The translations under genes and the position numbers were made by a program. DNA of 64,000 nt from assembly GCF_009931435.1 (NCBI RefSeq), contig NZ_CP043414.1, one strand, 5' to 3'. Below are positions 19,224-51,602 of the stretch, in pieces. Below the pieces are notes generated by a model. That model did no database searches. It worked only from the letters and a program-made list of their open reading frames with translations, and was not told where the DNA came from. Origin of the DNA: Escherichia coli. Its GTDB lineage: Bacteria; Pseudomonadota; Gammaproteobacteria; Enterobacterales; Enterobacteriaceae. Position 1 is the first letter of the stretch. Each line of letters begins with the position of its first letter.

Positions 19224-19323
19224 TTCCTGTTTTATTCAATGAGGGTTGCCCGGCAACCCTCATTGCTCATTGATTCTTATCTGTGTATCACCGTCATCAT
19301 TCTCATCTGAGAACCTATCGAAA

Positions 19324-19749
19324 TTAGCAACAGCCTTCTTCTGTATGCAGCAAGGCAAAAAGTTCTGTAACTCCATTGTTATTAACCGCACTGGTTACTA
19401 ACACGTTGTGCGCTCCAGCTTCCCGTAACCAACATTTCACCAAAGATATGTGTTCCATGCTGGCTAAATCTGCTTTGGTTACTACTCCAATGACCGGGTG
19501 ATTCATGGCCCGGTAGGGCGTTTTTACCTCTAATTCCTGCCTCAGCGCTGAGATTCCTGCTTGTTGCCGGAAAAGCATATAGATTTGCATAAGTATGCTC
19601 TTTCGTATAGCCAGAATGTGTCGGATTCTGGTTGAACAGATAACGTGCCCGTTGACTTCTTTCGGAAGTGAGATTGTCATATCTGACATACATGGTCGCC
19701 CCTGTTTGCCAAGTCCCCGTGTCAAAAAGTCATCTGTGTAAGATTCCAA
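19324..19749 (-). pseudogene. EutP/PduV-family GTPase C-terminal remnant (possibly yoeF-like); N-terminal P-loop half missing
   Basis: C-terminal half (VIGVVTKADLA...NVLVTSAVNNNGVTELFALL) resembles EutP/PduV; upstream part of ORF lacks P-loop. Confidence 0.4.
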
Positions 19750-19900
19750 TCATACATATGGACTCAGATTGGCCTGTGTCCGTGCTTCCTAAAGGAATTC
19801 ACAGATTTAGTCCTAATCATGATGACACATTAGCGAAGCTATGCCATGAACCGCCCCGGAAATCCTGGAGACTAAACTTCCTGAGAAAGAGGTAAACAGG

Positions 19901-20227
19901 ATGACTAAAAATACTCGTTTTTCCCCCGAAGTCCGTCAACGGGCAGTCCGTATGGTTCTGGAAAGTCAGAGCGAATATGACTCACAATGGGCGACAATTT
20001 GTTCCATTGCTCCAAAGATTGGCTGTACGCCGGAGACTCTGCGTGTCTGGGTTCGCCAGCATGAGCGGGATACCGGGGGCGGTGATGGAGGGCTCACCAC
20101 CGCTGAACGTCAGCGTCTGAAAGAGCTGGAACGTGAAAATCGTGAACTGCGCCGCAGTAACGATATCCTTCGCCAGGCTTCCGCTTATTTTGCGAAGGCG
20201 GAGTTCGACCGCCTCTGGAAAAAATGA
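19901..20227 (+). CDS. IS3-family transposase OrfA (HTH)
   Basis: 108 aa [21 protein letters not shown]...; A-rich slippery stretch (GGAAAAAATGA) at the orfA/orfB overlap. Confidence 0.85.
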
Positions 20228-20641
20228 TGCCACTGCTGGATAAGCTGCGTGAGCAGTACGGGGTCAGACCGGTATGCAGCGAACTGCATATTGCCCCGTC
20301 AACGTATTACCATTGTCAGCAACAGCGACATCATCCGGATAAACGCAGTGCCCGTGCGCAGCACGATGACTGGCTGAAGAAAGAGATACAGCGCGTATAC
20401 GATGAAAATCACCAGGTATACGGTGTGCGTAAAGTCTGGCGTCAGTTGTTACGGGAAGGTATCAGAGTGGCCAGATGCACTGTGGCACGTCTCATGGCGG
20501 TTATGGGACTTGCCGGTGTTCTCCGGGGTAAAAAGGTCCGTACGACCATCAGCCGGAAAGCCGTTGCCGCAGGCGACCGCGTAAACCGTCAGTTCGTGGC
20601 AGAACGACCTGACCAGCTGTGGGTGGCTGATTTTACTTACG
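20224..20641 (+). CDS. IS3-family transposase OrfB, 5' exon (upstream of intron)
   Basis: Reading frame matches IS3-family OrfB up to ...[10 protein letters not shown], then diverges at intron 5' end. Confidence 0.8.
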
Positions 20642-21297
20642 GTGTGCCCGGAGTTCAGGGCGGGCATGGATGCTTAAATGAACCGCGAGTCTGTCTGGAA
20701 TATTGAACCGGTAACTCACGATGAGAAACCCAACAATCCCACCGGGTGTGACGGTGGAGAACCTGAGCGGCAGTGACCTGCGGCATGCCCGCAGGGTGAT
20801 GTAACCCGCTGACAACGGGGATTGAGGCGAGATCACTAAGCCGAGATGATCCTCAAGGTTAAGTACTGAAAGGCTGAAGAACATGAACCCGTTAATCCGC
20901 CTCTGTGGGTTGAAAACGTCACCACGGCCTACGTGATCTGACAGGCCGTGCAGGAGGAACTGGCAGTGATACGTAAGCACTGCCGGTCGAAGGTGTTTTG
21001 ACATGTATGCGAAACACCGGGGCAGCAGCGTCTATCACGCTTGCGTTGCTGACTTCTGCCAACTTGCGGCAAGCAAGGATAAAGAGTGCGACGGGCAGCC
21101 TCCTCAGTATGCCTGAGTCCAGGCAGGTAAACCGGGGAAGGTCAGCGACGGATGTTAAGGGGGCATGGCTCCGATGACGCGCTGGCTGGCGGAGCTTCCG
21201 TAGTAGTCCGCGATGGGGAAAGCCCATTACATGGCGAAGGGAAGCAGTTTGAATGTGTTTGCGACGTGAATTAACTGACCTAACGAGGTGAAGACCT

Positions 21298-22821
21298 TTG
21301 ATAATCAGCGAAATGCAACGCAAGCTTGCCACATGGGCAGTCACCGATCCGTCCCTACGGATTCAACGGCTGCTGCGTCTGATAACACAACCAGAATGGC
21401 TGGCTGAAGCGGCGCGGATCACGCTTTCATCAAAGGGGGCCCATACCCCCGGCGTTGATGGCGTGAACAAAACAATGCTACAGGCCAGACTGGCTGTTGA
21501 GCTGCAAATCCTCAGGGATGAATTACTCTCAGGCCACTACCAGCCCTTGCCCGCCAGACGGGTTTACATCCCTAAAAGCAACGACAAACTGCGACCACTG
21601 GGTATCCCCGCGTTGCGGGATCGTATTGTTCAGCGGGCCATGCTGATGGCGATGGAGCCGATATGGGAGAGTGATTTTCATACGCTCTCATATGGCTTCC
21701 GGCCTGAGCGCAGTGTCCACCACGCTATCCGCACGGTGAAATTACAGCTCACAGACTGTGGTGAAACCCGGGGACGCTGGGTGATTGAAGGCGACCTGTC
21801 CAGTTACTTCGACACCGTACATCATCGACTGCTGATGAAGGCTGTACGCCGCAGGATCAGTGACGCACGTTTCATGACTCTGCTGTGGAAAACCATCAAG
21901 GCGGGACATATCGATGTCGGTCTCTTTCGGGCGGCCAGTGAAGGTGTGCCACAGGGCGGTGTTATATCGCCGCTATTATCGAACATCATGCTGAATGAGT
22001 TCGATCAATACCTGCATGAGCGCTACCTGAGCGGGAAAGCCAGAAAAGATCGGTGGTACTGGAATAACAGTATCCAACGGGGCCGAAGTACGGCGGTCAG
22101 AGAAAACTGGCAGTGGAAACCCGCGGTGGCGTACTGCCGCTATGCCGATGATTTTGTCCTCATCGTCAAAGGCACCAAAGCACAGGCGGAAGCCATCAGG
22201 GAGGAGTGTCGGGGTGTGCTCGAAGGCAGTCTGAAACTCAGGCTGAACATGGATAAGACTAAAATCACCCATGTTAATGACGGCTTTATCTTTCTGGGGC
22301 ACAGGATCATTCGCAAACGCAGTCGTTATGGCGAGATGCGAGTGGTCTCAACGATCCCGCAGGAGAAAGCCAGAAACTTCGCCGCATCGCTGACAGCACT
22401 GTTATCAGGCAACTACAGTGAAAGCAAAGTCGATATGGCTGAACAACTCAACCGAAAACTGAAAGGCTGGGCCATGTTCTATCAGTTCGTTGATTTTAAG
22501 GCCAAAGTCTTCAGTTATATCGACCGTGTCGTGTTCTGGAAGCTGGCTCACTGGCTGGCCCGCAAATACCGTACAGGTATCGCTTCCCTGATGAGGTGGT
22601 GGTGTAAATCACCGAAACCGGGTCAGAGCAAAACGTGGGTTTTATTTGGTAAAACCAATCACGGCAAGCTCAGCGGCGAAATACTGTACCGGTTGGTGGG
22701 GCAAGGCAAGAAGCTGTTCCGCTGGCGGCTACCCGAAGGTAATCCCTATCTGAGGACGGAGACCAGAAACACGTATACATCGCGCTTTACAGAAGTGGCA
22801 ATGGCGTTCGCCAGCATTTAA
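21298..22821 (+). CDS. Group II intron-encoded reverse transcriptase/maturase
   Basis: 507 aa; RT motifs (…RRVYIPK…LRPLGIP…, YADDFVL) followed by maturase X-like domain; located inside the intron. Confidence 0.85.
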   Translation: MIISEMQRKLATWAVTDPSLRIQRLLRLITQPEWLAEAARITLSSKGAHTPGVDGVNKTMLQARLAVELQILRDELLSGHYQPLPARRVYIPKSNDKLRPLGIPALRDRIVQRAMLMAMEPIWESDFHTLSYGFRPERSVHHAIRTVKLQLTDCGETRGRWVIEGDLSSYFDTVHHRLLMKAVRRRISDARFMTLLWKTIKAGHIDVGLFRAASEGVPQGGVISPLLSNIMLNEFDQYLHERYLSGKARKDRWYWNNSIQRGRSTAVRENWQWKPAVAYCRYADDFVLIVKGTKAQAEAIREECRGVLEGSLKLRLNMDKTKITHVNDGFIFLGHRIIRKRSRYGEMRVVSTIPQEKARNFAASLTALLSGNYSESKVDMAEQLNRKLKGWAMFYQFVDFKAKVFSYIDRVVFWKLAHWLARKYRTGIASLMRWWCKSPKPGQSKTWVLFGKTNHGKLSGEILYRLVGQGKKLFRWRLPEGNPYLRTETRNTYTSRFTEVAMAFASI

Positions 22822-22826
22822 ATGGA

Positions 22827-22860
22827 GAGCCGGATGCGCTGAAAGGTGCACGTCCGGTTC
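22827..22860 (+). ncRNA. Group II intron domain V (catalytic hairpin)
   Basis: GAGCCGGATGCGCTGAAAGGTGCACGTCCGGTTC: 34-nt hairpin with AGC triad and GAAA tetraloop, followed by domain VI with bulged A about 7 nt from the 3' splice site. Confidence 0.7.
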
Positions 22861-22883
22861 GGGGAGGAGAGGCAGGGAAATAG

Positions 22884-23384
<501 letters not shown>

Positions 23385-23542
23385 GTTCACAGATAAAACA
23401 CTCTCCAGGAAACCCGGGGCGGTTCACCATGTCAGATACAGGTTCACTTAGTCGCGGTCTTATCAGTCTGGCCTTTAATACTTGTTTATCCTTAGCAATC
23501 AGTAGGTTGGTTTTATTTTTCAACAGACAGAAGTAGTTTCAT

Positions 23543-24330
23543 TTACATATATGCAGCTACCATCACTTCTTCTGGTGAAATCTCTTTATCGTTGGTTAGC
23601 AATACCCAGAGCACTCTGGCATTTTTGTTGTTCAGCGCTACGGTGGCAACATTTTTATTCCGCCGCGAGACTGGTCTGCCCAGCCAACTTTCCTGGACCT
23701 GTCTGCCCTTTCTGGCGTTTGACACTGTCTTCGCACCATGGAACAGTAGCGTTCTGATATAGACATCGTCCCGTTTACTGATAGACCCCAGCGTGTTTTT
23801 ACCTACGCTGAAGCACTGTCGGGGAACCAGTCCAAGCCATGCAGCAAGCTGACGCCGGTTTTTGAAGCCGATACTACCCGGTGCTGACAATTGCAGTGGT
23901 GGTAAGAATAGCAATCCCCGAAATGGTGGCAATTTTCCTACACAGTTCGTCGTTCCCGACGTGTTCGTTGCTCACGGCTTCTATGGTTTCAATGTGTACG
24001 CTCAGTTGTTTCACATTTTCATTAGAGATAGGACGACAGCTGTCTGAACGGTATTGTTAAACAGTTTTCCGCGTCTTCAGGCAGGGCAGGGACATGACGA
24101 CTGAATGCTACAATGTCGGGCGGGAAAACGATGCCAAATTCAGCCAGTAATTCTCTGATCTGGTTTATCTGCGCAGCCCTTGATTTAACAAATCCCGTTT
24201 GGGCACGATGAAAAGACAGTAATGACTACTGCTCAGGCGTCTTGATGCTGACAAACTGCATATTAGGTCGGGTAACGGCTTCACAGATGGCCTCGGCAGC
24301 AGCCATATCATTCTTGTTTGTTTTCACATA
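23543..24330 (-). pseudogene. IS110-family transposase remnant (5'-truncated, internal stop)
   Basis: C-terminal domain FKNRRQLAAWLGLVPRQ…LGSISKRDDVYIRTLL typical of IS110/IS902 family; upstream frame contains stop and lacks N-terminal DEDD start. Confidence 0.6.
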
Positions 24331-24855
24331 TGGCTTTACAAATCGCGGGCATTAGTCTGACATTATGCCCCTAAGTAGACAGCATTCTCACTAATGACGC
24401 GCTCCGGCGCAGACCTCCATCCCAATCCGACAGGAAGACATATTCGCGAAGAATACGGGCATCAGGGAACGTTTAATCCGTTTTCTGAGCTTAGATTTTT
24501 CTGTTCCTACCCAGACCGTGGATTTGGAATTCATTTTTTGTCAGGTCAATGCTAATCGTTAAAACGGCCATAACGCACCTCCACTGGAAGGTTTATCAGT
24601 AATATCCTACCGTTGCTTCATGGTAGGGGCGTCCATTCCATTATTATCGGTTTTCCTTTCTGTTTATAAATGAAAACGCCAGCTGTATTCAGGCTGGCGT
24701 CAGGGGAAATGAAGCCTGTTGAGTGAGATTCACCGGTTCTGGTGCAGAAGCTGCAGATGGCGCAGGGTAAGGACATCTTCTCTTGCCTGCTTAATACAGG
24801 ACAACAGTGCTGTTTCTGTGGTTAATGGCACTATACCCTGTATCACTGCATTGTC

Positions 24856-25059
24856 TTACAGCAACTGGTGAGGGCTGGCATAAGTTGCCGGTGTTTCGGT
24901 AGAGTCACGTTCATCCACCACGCGGAGTGAATCACCGTTTTCAGCGACCTTGTTAATCAGTTCAGCGAGATTAACACCATCGACGTCAACGACAATGCGC
25001 CCCATGTTCAGCGCCTGCACGTTAACGCTGTCGGCTTCCAGCGTCAGGGCCAGTTTCAT
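24856..25059 (-). CDS. yeeW: YeeW-like small protein downstream of cbtA
   Basis: 67 aa ORF overlapping cbtA stop by 4 bp; conserved position in CP4-type islands. Confidence 0.6.
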   Translation of the reverse strand: MKLALTLEADSVNVQALNMGRIVVDVDGVNLAELINKVAENGDSLRVVDERDSTETPATYASPHQLL

Positions 25060-25433
25060 CGTTTCGCCTCCGGATGCTTCCCCAGGGTAATGTTATTTAC
25101 CGTTCTGTAATTGTCGCGGGTCATCAGGCCTGTTGCCCGGCGAGCCCGGAGGATATCAATACTGTTTATTAACTGAGAGCGGGGACAAGTGCTGAATCCC
25201 GGCTGGTCGGTACGCACCAGCGCGTATTTTTCCACGAGAAAATTCACCGCATCACACAGTGAAATGCCAGCTTCAATATGCTGCTCAATCACACGTTCAT
25301 CGGCGAACGGTGTGTCATTCAGTGTAAGGCCGTAATGCTGGCCCAGTAGTCGGGAGAGCAGAGTCTGCCAGATGGTGACGGGGGACGGGCAGCTCGATGC
25401 CTCCCGTACGTGTGTATCGGGTAATGTTTTCAT
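25056..25433 (-). CDS. cbtA: Cytoskeleton-binding toxin CbtA (YeeV)
   Basis: 125 aa; CbtA/YkfI/YpjF family sequence; immediately downstream of cbeA. Confidence 0.85.
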   Translation of the reverse strand: MKTLPDTHVREASSCPSPVTIWQTLLSRLLGQHYGLTLNDTPFADERVIEQHIEAGISLCDAVNFLVEKYALVRTDQPGFSTCPRSQLINSIDILRARRATGLMTRDNYRTVNNITLGKHPEAKR

Positions 25434-25522
25434 ACTGAAGGTTTTCCTGATATGCAGAGATGAAAAATGGAAAAGTGGCGTGGTGAAAGCACCAGGCCGG
25501 AGCAGAAGGTTATTCCGGTGGT

Positions 25523-25891
25523 TTACTTTTTCGTTTCGGGCGTCGGATAAACAGCCAGATAAACGTAACCACCGCTACCGAGGGTGTCAGCTTTGCAGGT
25601 CAGACCTTTCGCATACAGCGTGACGGTATGCTGATGGCGGGGATTCAGTTCACCGCTGGTGAGCATGAGTTCCAGTTGTTTCATCAGCAGCGGAAAGGCC
25701 TGGTCCAGGTGGTACGCATCTGCATCGCTGAACAGGCCTCTGATACCGGCGCGGTCGGCAAGGTAATGCAGGCGGTTACCCTCCTGCACCAGACGTGCCC
25801 CGAAACAGGGCGTCACGGTGCAGGGCAGCCCCCACCAGGGGCGGTCGTGATTGTCGTCGGGAAGCATTGTCCCGGAGAGTGCGTCTGACAC
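25523..25891 (-). CDS. cbeA: Antitoxin CbeA (YeeU)
   Basis: 122 aa; YeeU/YafW/YfjZ family. Confidence 0.85.
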   Translation of the reverse strand: MSDALSGTMLPDDNHDRPWWGLPCTVTPCFGARLVQEGNRLHYLADRAGIRGLFSDADAYHLDQAFPLLMKQLELMLTSGELNPRHQHTVTLYAKGLTCKADTLGSGGYVYLAVYPTPETKK

Positions 25892-26053
25892 GATAAAATC
25901 CTCACAGAAAATCGGTTAAGAATGGTTTAACGATGACAGGTCAGCCGGCGCGCAGACCGCCTTCGGTAAAGGTGTATTCGTTTATGAGCAGGGCCTCATC
26001 CACAGCGGCGTCTGAGCTCAGCCAGTCGTACTCGTTTTCCGGGTGACGGAACA

Positions 26054-26275
26054 TCAGTTCAGGGTGACGCTCATCAGCCGGACATACGGGCCAAAACTGT
26101 CCTTACGGCGTTCTGCAAACACGGCCAGCACACCGGGAATATCCTGCACTTCACGACCGGTATACGCTTCAGTGCCACCGTGCCAGCGGTATTTGCCGGT
26201 ACAGAACGGAAAAAGACGGGATGTCGGATGTTGTTGGTGAATTCGCATGGCTTCACCACGGGTGATGATTTTCAT
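26054..26275 (-). CDS. yeeT: DUF987 protein YeeT
   Basis: 73 aa ORF in conserved position between yeeS and cbeA. Confidence 0.8.
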   Translation of the reverse strand: MKIITRGEAMRIHQQHPTSRLFPFCTGKYRWHGGTEAYTGREVQDIPGVLAVFAERRKDSFGPYVRLMSVTLN

Positions 26276-26337
26276 AGTGTGATGCCTCTGAAGACGGAAG
26301 ATAAAAGTGAAAACAGGTGTGATGTGGTTGTGACGGG

Positions 26338-26829
26338 TTAAAGCAGACCATGTTCGGCAAAGGAGAAAACCTGGCTGCCACCGACTATCAGATGGTCCGG
26401 CACCCGGATATCCACCAGGCCCAGTGCCTGTACCAGACGTTCCGTGATAAGGCGGTCTGCCTTGCTGGGTGTGACTTCACCGGACGGGTGATTGTGTGCC
26501 AGCACCACAGCAGCGGCATTGTGATACAGGGCGCGTTTAATCACTTCCCGGGGATGGACTTCCGTGCGGTTGATGGTGCCGGTGAAGAGGGTTTCACCGG
26601 CAATCAGCTGATTCTGGTTATTCAGATACAGCACCCGGAATTCTTCACGCTCCAGTCCCGCCATGTTCAGAATCAGCCATTCCCGTGCCGCACGGGTGGA
26701 GGTGAAGGCCACGCCGGGTTCATGAAGATGGCGGTCCAGGGTTTTCAGGGCCCGTTGAATGAGGCTGCGCTCACCGGGTGTCATCTCTCCGGGCAGAAAG
26801 GAAAGCTGCTGCATTGTCCCTGCCTCCAT
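26338..26829 (-). CDS. yeeS: RadC-like JAB-domain protein YeeS
   Basis: JAMM-type motif region (…VVLAHNHPSGEVTPSKADRLIT…); alternative start MQQLSF at 26814. Confidence 0.8.
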   Translation of the reverse strand: MEAGTMQQLSFLPGEMTPGERSLIQRALKTLDRHLHEPGVAFTSTRAAREWLILNMAGLEREEFRVLYLNNQNQLIAGETLFTGTINRTEVHPREVIKRALYHNAAAVVLAHNHPSGEVTPSKADRLITERLVQALGLVDIRVPDHLIVGGSQVFSFAEHGLL

Positions 26830-27315
26830 TCAGTCGATGATGCGCATAATGGCGCTGCATTCCGGATGCTGCAGGGCGTAATCCCGCAGCCGGTAATAAT
26901 GGACCGTCATGGCATAACACTCCGTACGACAGGCATGATGACTGTACGTCATCAGACAGGCAGCAATGCCAGCGGCTTCCGGGCTCATTTCAGCGCGGTT
27001 GCCGTTCATGGCATTGAACAGTACCCATGTTTCGTCATCATCGTCATCCGGTTCGGGTGCCATAAATGCCCCGCCGTTGTTCAGAGTGTACAGATTCCAG
27101 ATACCACCGCAGTAGTCTTCGCACAGACGGTCCATCCAGCCGAAAACACGGGGCTCCAGGGTCACCCACTGTGGAATGAGGCCAAAATGCTGCGGCCAGA
27201 AGCTGATGCGCTGTTCATCAGGGACTATGGTGGCAACCAGCTGAGGCTGGTCATTCCCTGATGCAGCGGTTACGGAAACAGAAGATGTGGTGGAATTATG
27301 TGAAATGGTTTTCAT
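26830..27315 (-). CDS. Antirestriction protein (ArdB/KlcA-like; YfjX/YafX family)
   Basis: 161 aa with acidic DDDDDETW stretch and family-typical C-terminal region; position upstream of radC-like gene. Confidence 0.75.
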   Translation of the reverse strand: MKTISHNSTTSSVSVTAASGNDQPQLVATIVPDEQRISFWPQHFGLIPQWVTLEPRVFGWMDRLCEDYCGGIWNLYTLNNGGAFMAPEPDDDDDETWVLFNAMNGNRAEMSPEAAGIAACLMTYSHHACRTECYAMTVHYYRLRDYALQHPECSAIMRIID

Positions 27316-27369
27316 GAAATGACTCCTTAAAGGACAAATAAATGCGTGGTTTTCAGGGTAATGGCTGAA

Positions 27370-28188
27370 TCAGCGCAGGCTCTCCAGCAGGGTTTCCGCC
27401 ATCACCCACAATGCGCGGTTGAGCTTAATGTCAGTGTCAATGCTGTGAATGGCACGGGTATGGATACGTTTTCCTTTAGCGCTGCGACCTGAAATTCCGC
27501 CTTTCAGCATATTCTCCTGAATGGTCTGATAAGCACTCCACAGGTCCTTACCGTAATCCTCCCGGCGTCGTGGCGTCAGAATGTCGGCGGTGGTGACGGG
27601 CTGATGTTCGTCACCATAACGGTAAGTCAGTGCCGCCTGTGCCAGCGCCTGGCGTGCCGGTGGCGGCAGAATCAGCGACTGCATGGCATCACGCTTTTCC
27701 TCAATCCGGTCAAAAACCCCCACCACCTCGTAAGCCCCTTCAATGACTCTGTCCACCACATTTCCCCGGTGCGGAACACGCACTTCCCCCAGAGACTGAC
27801 CACAGACGCATCCGTTCTGGCAGACGAACCTGAAGTAACCCGGCAGCATCTGGTAGCTGGAGGTACCGTCATGAGAGTTGAGCAGAATAATTTCAGGGAC
27901 ATGTTCTCCGTTTATCTCTCCGGCCCGCCGCAGACGCAGCATGTGTTTTGTGTATCCCCGGCGGCCCGGGTCGCGCACACGGGTCTGGCAGGCGAAGAAT
28001 GGCTGAAAGCCTTCCCGCTGCAGGCTTTCCAGTACGGTGATGGTGGGGATGTACGTATAGTTCTGGCTTCGGGACGTGTGTTTATCTTCCCCGAAAATCC
28101 CCGGCACATAGTGCATCAGTTCTTCGTGTGTCAGCGGACGGTCACGGCGTATCTGGTTCGCATAACCAAAACGACTGGCTAGTCGCAT
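27370..28188 (-). CDS. DUF932 domain protein (YafZ/YfjQ-like)
   Basis: 272 aa ORF in conserved island position; family assignment from recalled sequence features. Confidence 0.7.
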   Translation of the reverse strand: MRLASRFGYANQIRRDRPLTHEELMHYVPGIFGEDKHTSRSQNYTYIPTITVLESLQREGFQPFFACQTRVRDPGRRGYTKHMLRLRRAGEINGEHVPEIILLNSHDGTSSYQMLPGYFRFVCQNGCVCGQSLGEVRVPHRGNVVDRVIEGAYEVVGVFDRIEEKRDAMQSLILPPPARQALAQAALTYRYGDEHQPVTTADILTPRRREDYGKDLWSAYQTIQENMLKGGISGRSAKGKRIHTRAIHSIDTDIKLNRALWVMAETLLESLR

Positions 28189-39121: not shown

Positions 39122-39730
39122 TCAGGTGCGCTTATCGTCAACCGTTGTGCGGTATGCCAGGAGCACGTACTGATCCATCAGATCCGTCAGTGCTGCGCTC
39201 TGCTTCTGACGGTTGATGATCCATTCCTCCAGCTCTTTTTCTGATTTCCGTTTCAGATTCTCCGTCCAGTCGTCAAGGCAGTTTCCGGTCATTAAATCAA
39301 GCCAGCAAAGCCAGACCAGTTTGAGGCGCAACTCCGTGCCACCAAACTGACGGAAGAGGCTGATCAGTTTATTTGCCAGCGAACGCTGCCTCAGACGTTC
39401 ACATTCAGACAGGAGAATGCCTTCCAGCATCGGATGATGAACCAGCAGATGTTCACTGGTGCATAAATTCACTATCAGATCATCATCCAGGGGCGGCGTG
39501 GTCCGTTTGTCCGGACCATAAATCAGCCGGTGCAGACTCTGGGGTACGATGGCAATCTCCGGTTTTTCACCATTGAATGACACCCACCCGGGCGTCAGAT
39601 TATGGAAGTAGTAGATATTCGGATGACACACGCCCCAGGATACGGCGTGCCGGGTGAAGCCGGTCAGCCATTTCTGGTAGCTTTCGTGGAGCAGCTCGTA
39701 ACGGGTCTGATACTGTGGTTTCATTTTCAT
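39122..39730 (-). CDS. Hypothetical protein (about 202 aa) downstream of alpA-like gene
   Basis: ORF with GAGGA RBS before MKMKPQYQTRYELLHE start; no confident family assignment. Confidence 0.5.
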   Translation of the reverse strand: MKMKPQYQTRYELLHESYQKWLTGFTRHAVSWGVCHPNIYYFHNLTPGWVSFNGEKPEIAIVPQSLHRLIYGPDKRTTPPLDDDLIVNLCTSEHLLVHHPMLEGILLSECERLRQRSLANKLISLFRQFGGTELRLKLVWLCWLDLMTGNCLDDWTENLKRKSEKELEEWIINRQKQSAALTDLMDQYVLLAYRTTVDDKRT

Positions 39731-39810
39731 ATTCCTCACGGGAGATAACAGGCAGCAGAACGCCGCCGGCAGGCCGGAGACTGCGTCTGCTGCAGATGAA
39801 CGGTTAAGAA

Positions 39811-40017
39811 TTACGGACGGGACTGTGCAATACGCGCCTGCAGCCAGGCTTCCACTTCGCTTTTCAGCCATCGGGAGCTGCGGCCCATTTTGATGGGCGC
39901 AGGAAAGTCACCATCCTTGATGAGTTTGTAAAACCACTTATCGGTCAGGCCGGTCAGTTGAGTGATAAATGCCATGTCGACCATCTGGTCATCCATCAGT
40001 GAAACTGGGGTGATCAT
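39811..40017 (-). CDS. AlpA-family phage transcriptional regulator (HTH)
   Basis: 68 aa from MITPVSLMDDQ with GGAGG RBS; AlpA-like motif …IKMGRSSRWLKSEVEAWL…. Confidence 0.65.
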   Translation of the reverse strand: MITPVSLMDDQMVDMAFITQLTGLTDKWFYKLIKDGDFPAPIKMGRSSRWLKSEVEAWLQARIAQSRP

Positions 40018-41727
40018 GAGAATGTTCCTCCGGATGTTGTTAAACCAGCCGGTGTGGTCATGAAAACAACGCACCACCTTCACCGGCATAACAACCGGGG
40101 AGAAACGTAAAAAATAATCGGGAATGTGACCGCCAGGAGATAAACGGGGAGGTTACGGTGGCTGAGCCGTACCGGTATGCCGGGTGGTTGTTACGAAACG
40201 ATGCTTCCGCACGCGCGCGCGATAAAGAAGGGATGATTTTCGTGAGGAAGAGGGGAAAACTGGCGTTCTGATAATTGCAGAGTTATTTACGGGGCGGTTA
40301 CGATGGGGCAGACCGTGTCCGGTGGGCAGGCGACAGGTATCACCGATGGGATAAGACTGTCTGATTGGTATTATAAATATATAAGAGAGATCAAACACAT
40401 GAGATCAAATACATGAGTTCATATATGTGAAATAAACACGGTGAGTGTGATCAGTGGGCATGATGAGAACGCAGTAGCAACAGACTGCGCTATCCCTGAT
40501 AGCTGGCGTATAACCTGCGTATATAAAACGTACCAGCAACGCACGTGAACAGAGTGCATTAAGCATCCGTCGTTGACACCGACCTGGTGAGTGACAGTCT
40601 GAGAGACCGGTTAAGTGGTGGTACGGGAGTAATGAGTTTGGGGTGGGTACCAGAATGCCAGTCTGGCGGTATGCTGACAGTATCACGTTAATTGCAGCAT
40701 AAAGTGATGAGAGGCTAATGGAAGTTAAAACCAGAGCAGTTCCGTCGTTGTTCATCCCGGGAGACGCTGGAAAAAGTGATTTCCCACACGCGTTATAAGC
40801 TTACTCCAGCGGAGATGGAAGCCTTCAACTCTGCGGTCGATCACCGACTGGCAGAACTGACAATGAACAAGCTTTACGATCGTGTTCCCGCTTCAGTCTG
40901 GAAATATGTCATCTGAGCGTTCGGTAATCACAACTGCATCGCGCCAGGTGTTATCCGCTTTGTGATTCTTATTGGCTCTTCTCAGGTTATTAAAAGCTGA
41001 ATATGTTCCTGTTGTCGGGAACCAGGATAATACCGGGAGCGTTAAGCGGTATAGCGACAACAAAGAATTCGAAATCAAAAGGGAATGGTGCCGGAGGCGT
41101 GGGCGGTAATAGGCTGATTTTCAGGTATTACCGGCTTACAACGTGTGGTTGATATTGAGGGGCTGTGAGTTTCGCGTATTTGTCAGAAACCCAGATGAGT
41201 TTTCCTGTATGGGACGAAATAAGGCAGCGGCAATACCTGGAAAATTTAATATGGTATGAAGGAGAACCTGTCGGTTACGCTTAATATACACGGTACACTG
41301 TCAGCTCAGGGGATACATGAACCGTTATCTCACCAGCTACACAGTATACACACACTGACGCTGACAGTAGTCAGCAGGACCACAATAATCAGCGCCAGCA
41401 GTATGGTAACGATACGGTCTGTATTCCGGTAGTAGCCGAAGGGGTCGACAGAACCACAATACGGGCAACACACTGTATTATTAGTAATCGCGTTTCCACA
41501 GTCCCTGCACTTCTTTTGCGTATCACCATAACTCCCTCCTCACAGCCTTACCCGTAACCGGTTTTTTACATTAAAAAACAACGCTGAAAATTCAACCGTC
41601 AGTCCGGAGACGACCGTTCGGGTTATCACAGAGTGCCTGAGACAGTGTCCTGCCGGAGGTCACTTCAGGGACTCTGCGCATTTTTTACGACGTGGCTATT
41701 CCGTATGAACCATACGGAGATTTAACC

Positions 41728-42297
41728 ATGACCTACAAATACAACCCCTTCTGGCAGCAACGTATTCGTGAGACGGTGCGGCACGCACTGAATGTTCATC
41801 CCCGCCTGACGGCATTGCGGGTTGACCTGCGTCTCCCGGATGTACCGGCAGCAACGGACGCAGCTGTGATATCCCGCTTCATCAATGCCCTGAAAGCCCG
41901 AATCGACGCTTACCAGAAACGTAAGCATCGGGAAGGTAAACGCGTGCATCCCACCACCCTGCATTACGTCTGGGCCCGGGAGTTTGGGGAGTTCAAAGGT
42001 AAAAAACACTATCACCTGATGCTGCTGGTCAACCGGGATACCTGGTGTCGTGCCGGTGATTACCGCGCTCCGGAGTCTCTGGCCGGGATGATTAAACAGG
42101 CGTGGTGCAGTGCCCTGGGAGTGGATGTCGGGTGCCATGCCACGCTGGTGCATTTTCCGGCCTGGCCGGCGGTGTGGCTGGCGCGTAATGATGACACCGG
42201 CTTTCAGCAGGTGCTGGAACGTGCTAACTATCTGGCGAAGGAGCATACCAAAGCTCACTGCACCGGTGAGCGCAACTTTGGCTGCAGTCGTGGCTGA
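41728..42297 (+). CDS. YagK/YfjJ-family protein (inovirus Gp2-like domain)
   Basis: 189 aa from MTYKYNPFWQQRIRE with GGAG RBS; family assignment from recalled features. Confidence 0.55.
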   Translation: MTYKYNPFWQQRIRETVRHALNVHPRLTALRVDLRLPDVPAATDAAVISRFINALKARIDAYQKRKHREGKRVHPTTLHYVWAREFGEFKGKKHYHLMLLVNRDTWCRAGDYRAPESLAGMIKQAWCSALGVDVGCHATLVHFPAWPAVWLARNDDTGFQQVLERANYLAKEHTKAHCTGERNFGCSRG

Positions 42298-42462
42298 GCC
42301 AGACAGACGAGTTATCTGACTTCAGTGTGATGACGTGTTCACGGCCACCACACTGATTTTCCCTTATGAGACTGAACTGAAACCGCCATTCACACCTGAC
42401 CACGCTGCCCGTACCGGGACGGCTGTTGCCTGCGTGTCGTCTGACGGTAAGGAACATATACT

Positions 42463-42855
42463 ATGTACGCAAAATCCTTTCTCGCTCTTGATGGCAACGG
42501 ACGTCTGACGGGCGCCCGTACAGCACAGGCCGCACCTTATGCTCACTACACCTGCCACTTGTGTGGCAGTGCACTCAGATACCATCCGCAATACGACACT
42601 GAACTTCCCTGGTTTGAACACACTGACGACAGGCTGACAGAGCACGGTCAACAGTGCCCTTATGTCAGGCCGGAGCGCAGAGAAATACAGTTGATTAAAC
42701 GTCTGCAGCAATTCGTACCGGATGCCTTACCCGTGGTGCGTAAAGCCAGCTGGCACTGCAGACAATGTCACCACGATTATTATGGGGAGCGGTACTGCAC
42801 ACACTGCCAGACCGGAGGTTTCAGTCTTCCCCGGACAGCTCAGCAACTGTCTTGA
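42463..42855 (+). CDS. Zinc-ribbon protein with CxxC…PWFEH motif (paralog 1)
   Basis: 130 aa; CHLCGSAL…LPWFEH…WHCRQCHHDYYGERYCTHC; paralogous to ORF at 44019-44423. Confidence 0.55.
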   Translation: MYAKSFLALDGNGRLTGARTAQAAPYAHYTCHLCGSALRYHPQYDTELPWFEHTDDRLTEHGQQCPYVRPERREIQLIKRLQQFVPDALPVVRKASWHCRQCHHDYYGERYCTHCQTGGFSLPRTAQQLS

Positions 42856-42864
42856 ACGTAAAAA

Positions 42865-43851
<987 letters not shown>

Positions 43852-44018
43852 ATGCGTTATGGCGTACTGACAACTGTTCGGGTTTCAGATGAGTGGCTCA
43901 GTGTATGCGCCATTCGCTGAGCTACGGGCTATGAACCCCTTGAGGGATCGGGCTGCATACACCTTGCCAAATCTAATCACAGTTATTTTAACCAATTGTC
44001 AAGATACAAGGAGGAGAT

Positions 44019-44423
44019 ATGCGAATTCTGAACTGCTATATGGCGAATGACAGCAAAGGCCATTTTGTTACGGCGAAAGAAGCCGCGAAGAACAACCGAC
44101 AGGACGTTTTGTGCTGTGTGTCCTGTGGTTGTCCGTTAACACTTAAGCGGGGCAATGACGGACAACCGCCGTGGTTTGAACATGACCAGATGACTGTTGC
44201 TGCGAAAATCCTGCTGCGATGCACCTGGCTTGACCCGGCAGAGAAAGAGGCCCGTCGTTTGCATCTGCAGGGCATGACGGTTCCGGATTATACGGTGAAG
44301 GTGAGAAAGTGGTTTTGTGTGATGTGTGACGAAGATTATGAGGGGGAAAAGTGCTGCCCGCGTTGTGGTACCGGGGTATACAGCAGGGATAGGGGGGCTG
44401 CAGGAGGGCAACTGGAAGGATAG
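44019..44423 (+). CDS. Zinc-ribbon protein with CxxC…PWFEH motif (paralog 2)
   Basis: 134 aa; CVSCGCPL…PPWFEH…WFCVMCDEDYEGEKCCPRC; strong AGGAGG RBS. Confidence 0.55.
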   Translation: MRILNCYMANDSKGHFVTAKEAAKNNRQDVLCCVSCGCPLTLKRGNDGQPPWFEHDQMTVAAKILLRCTWLDPAEKEARRLHLQGMTVPDYTVKVRKWFCVMCDEDYEGEKCCPRCGTGVYSRDRGAAGGQLEG

Positions 44424-44713
44424 GAACTGAGCGGTTCAGTCGCGGAAATCAGTTGCAGAGCTGTAATGATATCTCCGGGAGTGCTGCGTTGGTAGGGGCA
44501 TCCCGGGATAGAGAAATTTTAGCACTTTGCCCTGAATGATTGTAGACGTCCCGAGTACTCGTACCGGCCTGAGTTATTACAGTTAGATATTCGCTTTTTC
44601 TCCCGCATACTTCACAGCTGTCAACGACGGATGAAAAGTGGTTCTTCCGCAACTTGGGTGGAAGAAAATGGATGAAACTTTCTGGTGAACAAAGATCTAA
44701 GCTGATTTAAGTT

Positions 44714-45390
44714 ATGGGCAACGCAATGCACTCTCTTAAGACACTTTTAAAGTTACCTTGCGGATGGCGATGCAGTCGACAAATTATTAGCTCTGACGGT
44801 ATAACCCTCCATCTCCACGGAAAACGCAAAACAGCACAATGTCCTGAATGCTTTAAGCGTAGCGACTCTGTTCATAGTTGTCGTCGGCGCCGGATACAGC
44901 ATCTACCCTGCTCAGGGCAGACGCTATGGCTTGTATTTTCCGTCCGCCACTGGTACTGCCGTAACCCGGCTTGTTCACGTAAAATTTTTGCCGAGTCGCT
45001 TGCTCCCTTCGCCAGTTCACACCAGCAGTCTTCACAGGCGTTACAAAATTAACAACGTCAACTGGGATTAATAGCTGGAGGTGAGGCTGGAAAACGGGCT
45101 GCAACGGCAGCGGGTCTCCGTTGCAGTGCTGATACTCTTCTTCGCAGGCTTATCAATACCCCGGAGACGAAACAGTCAGGCGCGCCTCATGTCGGTATTG
45201 ATGAGTGGGCGTGGCATTGGGGCCACCGTTACGGTACGTTAATATTCAATCTTGATACTCACCGCCCCCTGGTCCTGCTTCCCGGCCGTGATCAGCGTAC
45301 GCTGGCGACCTGGTTCAGAAAAGGTCCGGAAATACAGGTTGTATCGCGTGATCGCAGTGGAGTCTATGCGACAGCTGAGGTAGCCTGAGT
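44714..45390 (+). pseudogene. ISL3-family transposase remnant (N-terminal zinc-finger region, frameshifted and 3'-truncated)
   Basis: N-terminal Cys/His zinc-finger ORF followed in another frame by …HVGIDEWAWHWGHRYGTLIFNLDTHRPLVLLPGRDQRTLATWF…VVSRDRSGVYA. Confidence 0.6.
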
Positions 45391-45439
45391 TTAACGGACA
45401 CTCCTTCCTGAAATAGAATGGCATCAGAAGGAGCTAATA

Positions 45440-45648
45440 ATGAGCAGAAAAACCCAACGTTACTCTAAAGAGTTCAAAGCCGAAGCTGTCAGAACGGTTC
45501 TTGAAAATCAACTTTCGATCAGTGAAGGCGCTTCCCGATTATCTCTTCCTGAAGGCACTTTAGGACAATGGGTTACCGCCGCCAGAAAAGGGCTCGGTAC
45601 TCCTGGTTCCCGCACGGTGGCTGAACTGGAATCTGAAATTCTGCAACT
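45440..45648 (+). pseudogene. IS3-family orfA fragment truncated by IS30
   Basis: MSRKTQRYSKEFKAEAVRTVLE… HTH orfA-type sequence ending exactly at the IS30 inverted repeat. Confidence 0.6.
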
Positions 45649-46869
45649 TGTAGATTCAATCTGTCAATGCAACACCCCTTTCAATTATCTCTTTCGGTGT
45701 TTTGAACTTCAGTGTCTTTCTCGGTCTGTTGTTTAGCTGAGCAGCAACCAGATCTAGTTCATGTTGAGTATATTGGGCAAGACATGTCTTTTTAGGAAAG
45801 TACTGCCGAATTAGCCCATTTGTGTTCTCATTTGTTCCCCGCTGCCAAGGACTCTGAGGATCGCAGAAGTAAACTTTAACGCCGGTGCTGACAGTAAATT
45901 CTAGATGTCTGGCCAGTTCCATTCCTCTGTCCCATGTCAGTGATTTTCTGAGTTCTGACGGTAAACTCAGGAATTTGTCGGTAAGAGCCTGATTTACTGA
46001 GACAGAATCTTTGCCCCTGAGTCTGAGGATGATCGTATAACGTGATTTTCGGTCTACAAGTGTGGCTATATGAGAGTTTTTTGTACCTGAGACTAAATCG
46101 CCCTCCCAATGCCCCAGAGAGCGTCTGTTATCGATATTTCGGGAACGTTCGTGAATTGGTGTTCCGTTCACTATGTTAATCGTACCTCTTTCGCCTTTGC
46201 GGGTATGACGCCTGCCATGGCGAAGGCTATGCGACCGTCGCAGATGCTGTATATTCAGGTGGTGTAGCGCTTCACGGCTACGAAAGTACAGCGTTTTATA
46301 AATTGTCTCAGGTGATATTCGCAGCGTTTTTTGACGTGGTTTTGTTCGCCTTAACCATCCTGATATTTGCTCTGGAGACCATTTCATCTCCAGCTTTTCC
46401 AGAACAAGCTTTCGCAATGGCAAATTTTGATCCAGTAAGCACGGTTTTGGCCTTTTCGCCATTCTGTTGGCTCGGTTATTAGCATCAACAGCTTTGTAAT
46501 AGCGTCTGCCCCGATTACGCTGAACTTCACGTGAGATCGTCGAAGGACTGCGATTCAGCGCAGTAGCTATCGCACGAATGCTCATTTTGGCTGACAAACC
46601 AGCTCGTATCTCCTCGCGCTCAGACAGTGTCAGGTGAGCTACAGCCCGCTTACGCTCATGGGGTTTTATGCCGCCAGTATCCCTTAACATAGTGAAGATC
46701 GTTCCGGGTTTTGAACCCAGGATATTCGCTATTTCACTGAAGCCTGTTCCGTTCTTCCATAGTTCAAAAACAGAGGCTTTTTCCTCTGCTGTAAATGTTC
46801 GTCTCATTCAAAAAACCTCCGCAACCCCATGTTTTCACATAACTGTTGCGTTGACCAATTGAATCTACA
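45649..46869 (-). mobile_element. IS30 (1221 bp, complete)
   Basis: Terminal inverted repeats TGTAGATTCAAT… at both ends; encodes 383-aa IS30 transposase. Confidence 0.9.
45656..46807 (-). CDS. IS30 transposase
   Basis: 383 aa MRRTFTAEEKASVFELWKNGTGFSEIA… with DDE motif region. Confidence 0.9.
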   Translation of the reverse strand: MRRTFTAEEKASVFELWKNGTGFSEIANILGSKPGTIFTMLRDTGGIKPHERKRAVAHLTLSEREEIRAGLSAKMSIRAIATALNRSPSTISREVQRNRGRRYYKAVDANNRANRMAKRPKPCLLDQNLPLRKLVLEKLEMKWSPEQISGWLRRTKPRQKTLRISPETIYKTLYFRSREALHHLNIQHLRRSHSLRHGRRHTRKGERGTINIVNGTPIHERSRNIDNRRSLGHWEGDLVSGTKNSHIATLVDRKSRYTIILRLRGKDSVSVNQALTDKFLSLPSELRKSLTWDRGMELARHLEFTVSTGVKVYFCDPQSPWQRGTNENTNGLIRQYFPKKTCLAQYTQHELDLVAAQLNNRPRKTLKFKTPKEIIERGVALTD

Positions 46870-47120
46870 GCGGCTTTTTTTAATATGTCCCGTTCGTCGG
46901 TAACCCGTTTCAGCTCTTTCTGGAGACGGCGGATCTCGGCCGGAGCATCTGACTGTTCTTTATTAGTGGAAGAATCCGGACCGTACTTCTTTATCCAGGC
47001 ATAAAGGCTGTGGGTGGTGATATCGAGACGTGTTGCAACGCTGGCAACAGAATAACCGCGATCAACAACCTGTTTGACTGCTTCAGTTTTAAACTCTTCG
47101 GGATAACGCTTACCGCTCAT
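46870..47120 (-). pseudogene. Second, different IS3-family orfA fragment truncated by IS30
   Basis: MSGKRYPEEFKTEAVKQVVDRGYSVASVATRLDIT… ; frame runs into the IS30 end. Confidence 0.6.
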
Positions 47121-48172
47121 GGGCACTTCTCTTTAAGCCATCTTAAATGACTCTGAGGTGTCTGTTAAACCCGTGGCGATTCAGTACAAAACACAACAAT
47201 AGCTTCATGATATATAAATACGTGATGACGAGTGGTACTCCGCATGGTTATTTAACTTCTCAGCACCACTAATGATCCTGAGCAACTTCGTATTTGGGCC
47301 ATTGCCATGGAGTAGAAAGCTGTGTCTGAGAATGCAGAATTTGAGAAAAGAATTAGCTTTCTTGGAGAGCTTCTGAAAATGGCACGCTAACAACGTTTTG
47401 TTAAAAAATGTGAATCACTTGCCGGGGCTGCATTTTCTATTCGAGGAGAATGTTGACGTAGATATTACAGAAATCTCAGCGCATCAGGATAAACTGCTAC
47501 CTTAGGTCAACCACCAAAAGAAAATACAATACGTCCAGTTTGTATGCCTTTAATAACACATCTTCTAAATGTTGAAGAATTATCCCGCCTGCTGAAGAAC
47601 GTTGCTCTGAGTGTGATAAACCTTTTTATTCTTGATGATGTCAGCGAGAAGATGGAATATATCCCCGACTGGGTCGTGGTTACCCGGTTAAACATCTGGT
47701 GGCGCTAATAAATCTGGCAGGTCACATTCTGTTGAATGCTGTGACAGTGCCTTACCGAGAGAGCGAAATTGTGGTGTTCTAGTGCATAGTCGCCACCATT
47801 CCGGATAATTCTATTGCGTTGTTTTACAAGTTCTTTTACAGCGCAGATCTGTCGCTGACGTTGAATCAATAGCCTGGATTTCAGAACACAATGCCTGTTT
47901 GCTGGTTGGTCCGGCAGTAGCATTAATTCATTATCTGAATGAAATGTGTCAATCCACAGAAACCGCTGTCAATGACGCATTTTGTCGGACGTTAACACGA
48001 GAAAGTTTGGCTATTCCGTAATGCCATCTTATTTCGTAATGGATTGAGAATGCTGGATTTTTAATTATATTACGCGCAGTATTAATCGCGTAAATGTTTT
48101 GCGGTCAGCAACGGTGGGGGATCCATTGTTCTGTTCAATGAATACCATCATACATTTGAATCAGGAGTCGGT

Positions 48173-49458: not shown

Positions 49459-49469
49459 AGAGACGTGAC

Positions 49470-51598: not shown

Positions 51599-51602
51599 AA
51601 TT

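Follow-up and report, generated by a model that had tools for sequence, protein, structure and literature searches.

Gene content of the tmaR-cobU interval

In the window, the 64,000-nucleotide stretch of Escherichia coli DNA analysed here, the tmaR (yeeX) gene runs to 19223 and cobU begins at 48173. Comparison with the pdu-positive E. coli strain A7 places 28,370 bp of non-backbone DNA (19507..47876) between the two genes: nucleotide homology to A7 stops at 19506 and starts again only at 47877. This agrees with the sequence-only reading, which described an island of about 28 kb between yeeX and cobU; the right end it proposed (47150) falls ~700 bp short of the true edge. The interval contains the following features.

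19324..19506, minus strand: pduV remnant (C-terminal 60 codons; yoeF of K-12), the left backbone scar
19507..19846, no strand: left island edge, 340 bp, of which the first 71 bp are the junction common across E. coli
19847..23426, plus strand: IS629 (IS3 family), 1,310 bp without its intron (RefSeq)
20642..22911, plus strand: group II intron, 2,270 bp, within IS629 orfB in sense orientation
21313..22821: ltrA, intact reverse transcriptase/maturase gene of the intron (RVT_1 domain)
~23440..24650 (ends approximate), minus strand: degenerate IS110-family element with many stops and frameshifts
24730..24822 and 24883..25059, minus strand: DUF957 and DUF5983/YeeW fragments, the cut-off distal end of the yee module
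25056..25433, minus strand: cbtA toxin (Pfam CbtA_toxin 1e-61; RefSeq)
25523..25891, minus strand: cbeA antitoxin (Pfam CbeA_antitoxin 6e-53; RefSeq)
26054..26275, minus strand: yeeT (DUF987; Pfam, RefSeq)
26338..26814, minus strand: yeeS (RadC/JAB; Pfam, RefSeq)
26830..29055, minus strand: antirestriction, DUF932, DUF905 and IrmA-family genes (Pfam)
29131..31647, minus strand: full-length YeeR, 838 aa
31768..34887, minus strand: agn43/flu (Pfam AIDA, AC_1, Autotransporter)
34908..35111, minus strand: IsrC sRNA locus (Rfam RF00124, 253 bits)
35215..36087, minus strand: full-length YeeP/YfjP-type GTPase (MMR_HSR1 domain; GTPase families)
37316..38800, plus strand: YfjI-family protein (Pfam DUF3987 6e-94; PHROG 'DNA helicase')
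39122..39724, minus strand: hypothetical protein, 200 aa
39811..40017, minus strand: AlpA-like helix-turn-helix gene (Phage_AlpA 1e-8; PHROG excisionase/regulator families)
40767..40916, plus strand: Hha/YmoA-like gene (Pfam HHA)
41728..42297, plus strand: YagK/YfjJ ('inovirus Gp2 family') gene (Pfam YagK_YfjJ_C)
42463..42855 and 44019..44423, plus strand: two zinc-ribbon genes (Zn_ribbon_11 and DUF7828, each in two proteins)
42844..44008, minus strand: IS110-family element, 1,165 bp, transposase with an internal stop (RefSeq pseudogene)
44714..45375, plus strand: ISL3-family fragment, with a more complete copy at the same place in CFT073
45375..45648, plus strand: left-end fragment of IS600 (IS3 family)
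45649..46869, minus strand: intact IS30, 1,221 bp, 26-nt inverted repeats (HTH_38 and rve domains)
46870..47183, minus strand: IS3-family orfA fragment (NF033516 transpos_IS3 2e-16; RefSeq partial transposase)
47184..47876, plus strand: locus-specific right-end remnant, common to K-12 (yoeG/yeeH) and CFT073
47681..47869: IS4-family fragment within this remnant (RefSeq annotation)
47877..48021, plus strand: cbi (cobalamin synthesis) gene stub directly upstream of cobU, the right backbone scar

Pfam and NCBIfam recover every gene that the sequence-only reading had named, with matches to Ag43, YeeP, CbtA, CbeA, DUF987 (YeeT), RadC/JAB (YeeS), Antirestrict, DUF932, DUF3987 (YfjI), Phage_AlpA, YagK_YfjJ_C and two Zn_ribbon_11 proteins. 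The flu module comprises the YeeP GTPase, IsrC, phase-variable Ag43 and YeeR, the yee module CbtA/CbeA, RadC, DUF987, antirestriction and DUF932 genes, and a third module YfjI, AlpA, Hha, YfjJ and the zinc-ribbon genes. YeeR has no significant match in Pfam, NCBIfam or PHROG, the 200-aa hypothetical protein matches nothing in Pfam, NCBIfam, PHROGs or PADLOC, and an ORF piece in the left edge (19507..19846) matches no family.

The agn43/IsrC/switch feature spans 31768..35131 on the minus strand. Three GATC sites (~35065..35110) can be read directly in the region upstream of agn43, and the three-GATC Dam/OxyR switch is intact. From the K-12 genes it is established that Ag43 confers phase-variable autoaggregation and biofilm formation, and that CbtA and CbeA are a toxin-antitoxin pair. 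At the distal end of the yee module, tblastn with the full-length pheV-island proteins recovers aa 36-65 of DUF957 and aa 1-64 of the 162 of DUF5983, and no match to the pheV-island DUF4942 protein; this end lacks both DUF4942 and any attR.

Eight IS-derived segments (IS629, two IS110-family elements, and ISL3, IS600, IS30, IS3-family and IS4 pieces) and one group II intron are counted in the island; the sequence-only reading had rightly seen many IS-type elements, although its 'at least six' was an undercount. IS629 has 25-nt terminal inverted repeats and a 3-bp target duplication, CCA preceding TGAACC at the left end and following GGTTCA at the right, and contains an ALIL frameshift pseudoknot at 20182..20298. 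Its intron begins with GTGTG and ends with CTAC; with its removal the exons form the in-frame sequence DFTYVSTW, and Rfam Intron_gpII matches at 22825..22911. The intron fits the published account of E.c.I4 homing into IS629-type transposases (PMC3522654). In the degenerate IS110-family element, a C-terminal ORF (23543..23914) matches positions 247-342 of NF033542 and a stitched N-terminal piece positions 81-179. The other IS110-family element, whose transposase is 30% identical to that of IS621, is a clean insertion relative to comparison sequences L003 and L004 and to CFT073; it parts the two zinc-ribbon genes, which are contiguous in the pheV, leuX and CFT073 copies. The IS600 fragment is 99.6% identical to the start of the annotated IS600 in L004. 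IS30 lacks a target duplication, its flanks reading CT and GC.

The pdu slot and the island ends

Strain A7 holds pduA-V, pocR and a B12 riboswitch in exactly the slot of the island, which replaces ~17.5 kb made up of the pdu operon, pocR and a portion of a cbi remnant. The left scar matches aa 87-146 of the 147 aa of A7 PduV at 92% identity (tblastn) and also matches TIGR02528 EutP. The right scar, annotated in RefSeq as 'cobalamin biosynthesis protein, missing N-terminus', is the counterpart of the 3' end of a 145-aa CbiG-like ORF in A7. An early E. coli ancestor had pduA-V, pocR and the cbi remnant between tmaR and cobU, and in most of the species these 17.5 kb have given way to island DNA, leaving the pduV and cbi stubs.

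The left junction (19500..19577) is present in 4,180 of 5,426 complete genomes and the whole 19507..19846 stretch in 651, while the pdu allele is counted in 645 to 848 of them; a clean deletion allele joining pduV' to cobU is also found. The junction geometry and the counts (4,180 + 848 <= 5,426) suggest that the pdu and island alleles are mutually exclusive. The right-end remnant (47184..47876) is 99.5% identical to K-12 and 99.1% to CFT073. IS debris is present at both island ends; as to the founding event, the IS4 fragment at the right edge gives a hint at most.

The island has no integrase, att repeats or tRNA target. The absence of an integrase gene, already remarked in the sequence-only reading, is borne out by tblastn with K-12 IntA and a pheV-island integrase, which finds no P4-type integrase in the 64 kb at E<1, and by the RefSeq annotation of the identical sequence, which contains no recombinase. 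Att-like direct repeats, which that reading proposed to seek at the ends, do not exceed 12 nt, the chance level (shuffled sequence: mean 11.7, maximum 14), and no tRNA-Asn or tRNA-Phe fragments are found there. The site is neither an att nor a tRNA site. A single 12-nt tRNA match falls within the IrmA gene, in the interior of the island.

Relation to CP4-44, PAI-cobU and the tRNA islands

CP4-44 of K-12 MG1655 (2,066,020..2,078,748) occupies the same slot between cobU and tmaR. It shares the gene order yeeP-isrC-flu-yeeR-yeeS-yeeT-cbeA-cbtA-yeeW, with 99% identity over flu and yeeR (99.6-100% over 29900..34400), and is likewise integrase-less (PMC3105296); its excision was not detected (PMC3105296). 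The window island had been proposed to be a fuller CP4-44-like island; indeed K-12 is a shorter deletion derivative, not collinear with the window, and lacks 19578..24471, 26791..30126 and 35768..47183. An internal 3.3-kb deletion removes all four of the antirestriction, DUF932, DUF905 and IrmA genes together with the 3' third of yeeR, so that K-12 YeeR (510 aa) corresponds to the N-terminal part (507 aa) of the 838-aa protein. The K-12 yeeP is a truncated pseudogene fragment, homology stopping at 35767, and yoeA::IS2 and IS5 take the place of the YfjI-to-zinc-ribbon arm; the yoeA fragments correspond to the 5'-terminal 500 bp of a CFT073 TonB-dependent receptor gene. An IS66 fragment lies where the window has 19578..19846 (269 bp), the intron-bearing IS629 and the degenerate IS110-family element.

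Both K-12 CP4-44 and CFT073 match the window to 19577 at the left and from 47184 at the right. The 43-kb PAI-CFT073-cobU (ExPEC) and the O157:H7 island have the same pduV' left junction, followed in O157:H7 by the yee module; because this junction is common to them, K-12, CFT073 (PAI-cobU) and O157:H7 carry the same island as the window. The strains for which PAI-cobU is catalogued include CFT073, 536 and UTI89 (PMC7545054). CFT073 and O157:H7 also share the yee module, the cbi' stub and the IS4 fragment with the window, O157:H7 having an extra ISEc8 between the last two, and neither has an integrase. Where the window has flu, yeeR and yeeP, both have hma plus a dynamin/RdcB/patatin block, to which CFT073 adds an iron-uptake operon. 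The arm with ISL3, zinc-ribbon, YfjJ, Hha and AlpA is shared with CFT073, 44009..45375 being 96.9% identical; 15.7 kb that CFT073 has between the points matching window positions 45375 and 47184, and the hma arm, are missing from the window.

Over its core (24910..42843 and 44009..44407) the island shares 97-98% identity with the integrase-distal part of a 66-kb pheV island, whose tRNA-Phe gene and tyrosine integrase lie at the far end, 66 kb away; the core is also similar to a leuX island. GI-pheV and GI-leuX keep this 18-kb core with its gene order unchanged between the zinc-ribbon genes and the DUF5983 gene. The window lacks what such P4-integrase tRNA islands possess: a tRNA target, a P4-type integrase, complete DUF957 and DUF4942 genes at the end and, in many of them, an attR repeat of 19-23 bp (PMC11537424). 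The flu and yee modules of GI-pheV are reported to be related to CP4-44 and to diversify via recombination (PMC11537424); 500-bp segments of our island, swinging between ~100% and ~90% identity to different references, are consistent with recombination. The island is built of modules that elsewhere lie at the integrase-distal end of P4-integrase tRNA islands (pheV, leuX), and the present-day integrase positions suggest that a tRNA island supplied the modules and not vice versa.

CP4-57 of K-12 (ssrA-intA-alpA-yfjI-yfjJ...yfjZ-ypjF) has, like the window, AlpA, YfjI (53% identity), YfjJ (36%), a YfjP-type GTPase, DUF932, antirestriction, RadC, DUF987 and a CbtA-family toxin-antitoxin pair. However, its proteins resemble those of the island only distantly, a divergent arrangement of yfjI and alpA is seen only in the window, and CP4-57 keeps IntA and excises.

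Identity and origin of the island

The island is very probably the chromosomally fixed, non-excisable CP4-44 (K-12) or PAI-cobU (ExPEC) in a fuller allelic form. It is already known and ordinary, having been sequenced and annotated in hundreds of genomes; the exact sequence is public, and the window is all but identical to published complete genomes, differing from NZ_CP042969.1 by 15 SNPs and one indel across 38 kb.

A recent independent acquisition, in which a fresh tRNA-type island settled on or replaced an old CP4-44 remnant, is unlikely. It would account for the 99-100% identity of 26900..31900 and 35400..40400 to the pheV island of an unrelated strain, for the only 89-97% identity of the yee toxin-antitoxin part to K-12, and for the full form (at least 80% of the sequence) occurring in only 214 to 246 of the 5,426 genomes. 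Yet both outer ends are the ancient shared ones, the flu-yeeR segment is nearly identical to K-12 at the same locus, and the ISL3 fragment beside the zinc-ribbon gene is common to CFT073, again at this locus. Patchy identity suits gene conversion between paralogues better than arrival of a whole island, which moreover would have come unaccompanied by integrase or att sites.

The name 'CP4' implies a defective P4-like satellite prophage, but this reading is very improbable: the AlpA-like and DUF3987/YfjI genes and the resemblance to CP4-57, bearer of a P4-type integrase, point that way, but the integrase is absent, the PHROG scan of ten proteins finds no capsid, head-size, packaging or other structural function, and adhesin, toxin-antitoxin, antirestriction and IS genes make up most of the island. 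That the island as a whole can still move, whether as a composite transposon or through its IS110-family or IS30 transposases, is barely credible. IS30 has an intact transposase and inverted repeats, intron splicing would restore IS629, and other strains carry the same modules at several places in the chromosome; these copies, however, sit in tRNA islands with their own integrase. The end elements come from different families and are mostly fragments or pseudogenes, no matching terminal repeats or target duplication surround the island, and its junctions are identical in thousands of genomes at one locus (median one place per genome).

The sequence-only reading suggested that the region is a degenerate integrative element whose integration module had been lost or replaced by IS-mediated rearrangement. 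A degenerate relative is a reasonable description, given the match of the core to the integrase-distal part of the pheV island. IS-mediated loss is demonstrated for later strain-specific trimming alone, by IS30 without a target duplication and the 15.7 kb of CFT073 absent there, and not for the original event. With the left junction in 4,180 genomes and no integrase in any of the four lineages examined (window, K-12, CFT073 of phylogroup B2, and O157:H7), any integrase loss is ancient rather than strain-specific.

As a fixed CP4-44/PAI-cobU allele, the island would have been passed on vertically, changing only through IS insertions, deletions associated with IS elements, and homologous exchange with paralogous modules at other places in the genome. 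The alleles of the window, K-12, CFT073 and O157:H7 would then each descend from one ancestral island by deletions or replacements of their own: the window probably lost the cobU-proximal arm (hma and neighbours) beside IS30, whereas K-12 may instead have lost 3.3 kb in the yee/yeeR region and the whole YfjI-to-zinc-ribbon arm.

Edges of the island and the pdu operon

Homology with the pdu-positive E. coli strain A7 ends at 19506, within pduV (PduV residues 87–146 are kept in the window), and starts again at 47877, within a cbi ORF. The foreign, non-backbone DNA therefore occupies 19507..47876 (28,370 bp), having displaced roughly 17.5 kb of pdu, pocR, and cbi sequence. In strain A7 the same slot contains the complete pduA-V operon, pocR, a cobalamin (B12) riboswitch, and a 145-aa CbiG-like ORF, from which the cbi stub adjoining cobU derives; the A7 pdu operon is intact, and the locus is without cbi genes. 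In strain KMi029, nearer to the A7 lineage, a clean deletion joins pduV' to cobU, and the junction has 4 bp of microhomology. Both alleles were found by searching genomes with the right junction. The tmaR-cobU locus is thus polymorphic in E. coli, carrying the pdu operon, the island, or a clean deletion. Since a truncated stub cannot precede the full-length gene, the pdu operon came first and the island second.

The left junction is present in 4,180 of 5,426 complete genomes, and pduT-V in 645 of the 5,426 at a coverage of at least 80% (848 at any coverage). The 340 bp at the left edge of the island (19507..19846) have no family assignment; their first 71 bp are carried by 77% of the complete E. 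coli genomes, the remainder by only 651. No paper joining CP4-44 with pdu was found in a literature search, but pan-genome studies and earlier work on cob/pdu loss in E. coli probably imply the connection.

Gene content and insertion sequences

The gene order follows the RefSeq annotation of an identical sequence, checked with Pfam and NCBIfam.

Features from tmaR to cobU, in window coordinates
ending at 19223: tmaR (yeeX), RefSeq
19324..19689: pduV-family stub, RefSeq annotation
19847..23426: IS629, carrying a group II intron
20642..22911: group II intron, within IS629
about 23440..24650: degenerate IS110-family element
between this element and cbtA: DUF957 and DUF5983 fragments
after these fragments, in order: cbtA, cbeA, yeeT, yeeS
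after yeeS: antirestriction, DUF932, DUF905, and IrmA genes
after the IrmA gene: YeeR, 838 aa
after YeeR: agn43 (flu) with IsrC
after agn43/IsrC: YeeP GTPase, full-length
after YeeP, opposite strand: YfjI (DUF3987)
after YfjI: 200-aa hypothetical protein
after the hypothetical protein: AlpA-like, then Hha-like, then YagK/YfjJ genes
42844..44008: IS110-family insertion splitting two zinc-ribbon genes
between the zinc-ribbon genes and IS30: ISL3 fragment and IS600 fragment
45649..46869: IS30, intact
after IS30: IS3-family orfA fragment
before the cbi stub: locus-specific stretch with an IS4 fragment
between that stretch and cobU: cbi stub
starting at 48173: cobU

All genes named in the sequence-only reading are present according to RefSeq, Pfam, and NCBIfam. 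Its count of at least six IS-type elements is too low, as eight IS-derived segments and one intron are found. Neither Pfam nor NCBIfam has a family match for the long YeeR or for the 200-aa hypothetical protein. PHROGs and PADLOC searches of the poorly characterised island proteins gave no structural phage gene and no confident defence system, with weak matches at most for YeeP and YeeR. An Rfam scan of 17000..52000 detected only IsrC, an IS3 frameshift pseudoknot, group II intron domains V-VI, and one tRNA. The GC content of the island is patchy (0.39 to 0.59, versus 0.46 to 0.50 in the flanks), which is consistent with a mosaic and of no help in placing the edges. Between the divergent yeeP and yfjI lies a 1.2-kb intergenic stretch (36088..37315) with a GC content of about 0.39, kept at 97-99% identity in paralogous islands; it has no Rfam match, and two short ORFs are the only ones of at least 60 aa.

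The IS629 copy is a simple insertion: it has 25-nt inverted repeats, and CCA is duplicated at its flanks. Its intron is full-length, encodes an intact reverse transcriptase, and lies in the sense orientation in orfB; it starts with GTGTG and ends with CTAC, and the exons on either side of it join in frame. Strain CFS3246 has another copy, with 98.7% identity and the same IS context, in its pheV island (31407..34224 of that locus). The window intron is in keeping with the homing behaviour of E.c.I4, which targets IS629-type transposases (PMC3522654). At 42844..44008, the IS110-family element has inserted cleanly between the two zinc-ribbon genes. IS30 shows no target duplication, and at its position the window lacks 15.7 kb that CFT073 keeps, including hma.

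Relatives at the locus and the lack of a mobility apparatus

The island lies between cobU and tmaR, as do CP4-44 of K-12 and PAI-cobU, the latter recorded for many ExPEC strains (PMC7545054). Both of its ends, 19507..19577 and 47184..47876, are 98-99.5% identical to K-12 and CFT073. Alignment with K-12 shows an island orthologous to CP4-44 yet not collinear with it, and confirms that the window version is the more complete one, as the sequence-only reading had it; a collinear arrangement, which would contradict this, was not seen. K-12 aligns up to 19577, through the backbone and 71 bp into the island, and lacks 19578..24471, where it has 160 bp of an IS66 end. It aligns over 24472..26790 at 93-97% identity, lacks 26791..30126 through a clean 3.3-kb deletion joining yeeS to a truncated yeeR, and aligns again over 30127..35767 at 99% identity. 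Moreover, it lacks 35768..47183, where yoeA::IS2 is located, and from 47184 on it aligns except for the K-12 IS5. The CFT073 PAI-cobU and the O157:H7 island have the pduV' junction and the yee module in common with the window, in which this module (yeeS, yeeT, cbeA, cbtA, and yeeW) lies on the tmaR side; neither carries an integrase. The K-12 yoeA fragments correspond to the 5' end of the CFT073 hma-type gene. Together with the 15.7 kb kept by CFT073 and missing from the window, this indicates that the islands of the window, K-12, CFT073, and O157:H7 descend from one ancestral island through different deletions or replacements.

The reported lack of an integrase gene agrees with the RefSeq annotation and with tblastn searches using two P4-type integrases (IntA and a pheV-island integrase), which gave no match at E<1 in the 64-kb window. 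This is in line with CP4-44, which has no integrase and for which excision was not detected (PMC3105296). The distal end of the island is shortened, retaining residues 1-64 of the 162 of DUF5983 and 36-65 of DUF957, and DUF4942 is absent from it. Direct repeats were searched with a seed of 12 and a minimum length of 18, and by an exact-match scan of one end against the other with shuffled controls. The att-like repeats proposed as a check are not found between the island ends above chance, nor are 3' fragments of at least 12 nt of tRNA-Asn or tRNA-Phe, the two tRNAs covered; the sole 12-nt tRNA match lies inside the island, within the IrmA gene.

These data bear on the class of the element. 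The flu and yee cargo would suit a tRNA island of the GI-pheV type, but the integrase, the tRNA site, and attL/attR are absent; the flanks are the pduV and cbi stubs, and the closest tRNA gene (Asn, 51603..51678) lies at a distance of 3.7 kb, past cobUST and ldtA. The orientation of the island would fit an original integration at this tRNA-Asn (51603, minus strand) followed by rearrangement. We reject this origin as unparsimonious because ldtA and cobTSU lie in between, and no single inversion or deletion yields the observed order. A P4-like satellite prophage is likewise disfavoured by the missing integrase; ten island proteins compared with PHROGs gave named functions only in the AlpA-like, helicase-like, and antirestriction families, with no psu/sid/delta-type functions among the matches. 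A composite transposon is at odds with end elements that are unlike and fragmentary and have no terminal repeats. The sequence-only reading of a degenerate element that lost its integration module through IS activity holds as to the degenerate, integrase-less state and the IS-associated trimming. This state is, however, ancient and species-wide, and the site is not an att site.

Several observations concern the flanking backbone. Relative to the near-identical NZ_CP042969.1, yeeA (17665..18722) shows a 1-bp deletion in an A-run at 18465 that divides the gene in two ORFs and represents either a genuine frameshift or a sequencing error in the homopolymer. To the right of the island, at distances of 3.7 to 10.8 kb, are three tRNA-Asn genes (51603..58647). 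Such genes are HPI and pks island sites in ExPEC (PMC7545054); in the window none of the three carries an island. Between two of them, yeeO contains an IS1 (54877..57603) interrupted by IS100 (55575..57528). The K-12 coordinates of the IS1 flanks overlap by 9 bp, an IS1-type target duplication, and the insertion is absent from CFSAN061769.

Shared modules and significance

The YfjI-to-zinc-ribbon segment is found at various sites in 1,063 genomes at a coverage of at least 80%. A copy in CFS3246, 97-98% identical, covers window positions 24910..42843 and 44009..44407 and makes up the distal end of a 66-kb island, with yghD on one side and a tyrosine integrase beside tRNA-Phe on the other; another strain has a copy within a leuX island. 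These shared segments are the 'flu' and 'yee' modules of GI-pheV, which are related to CP4-44 and diversify by recombination (PMC11537424). In 500-bp windows, the identity of the island to K-12 is 99.6-100% over 29900..34400; with the pheV copy it reaches 99-100% over 26900..31900 and 35400..40400, and elsewhere it falls to 89-94%. This mosaic may reflect exchange between paralogues.

We give roughly even chances to a broader view, in which one E. coli locus has two alleles that exclude each other, the Ag43/toxin-antitoxin island and the pdu microcompartment operon, arising from a single ancient replacement beside IS debris. Since then, gene conversion from paralogous modules of integrase-bearing tRNA islands would have renewed the immobile island, which would thus be evolving within a genome-wide module network.

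The island is already known and in public databases: complete RefSeq genomes are 99.9-100% identical to the window over 17000..41000 and 36000..50000, the 38 kb compared with NZ_CP042969.1 differ by 15 SNPs and one 1-bp indel, and 214 to 246 of the 5,426 complete genomes hold at least 80% of the region. Its correct label is the CP4-44 / PAI-cobU island and no new element, which in itself has little import beyond annotation. K-12 CP4-44, which serves as the reference for this island, has been much reduced by deletions, and the window retains a fuller set: full-length YeeR and YeeP, the antirestriction, DUF932, DUF905, and IrmA genes, and the YfjI/AlpA/Hha/YfjJ/zinc-ribbon arm.

Functional roles are taken by analogy from K-12 gene knowledge. 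CbtA and CbeA form a type IV toxin-antitoxin pair. Ag43, an adhesin that self-associates and is phase-variable, is under Dam and OxyR control at three GATC sites, and in the window agn43 these three sites and the IsrC locus are intact. With a pduV stub and a cbi stub as the island's edges, the locus is occupied either by the island or by the pdu operon, a point relevant to how strains differ in propanediol use and in Ag43-mediated aggregation.
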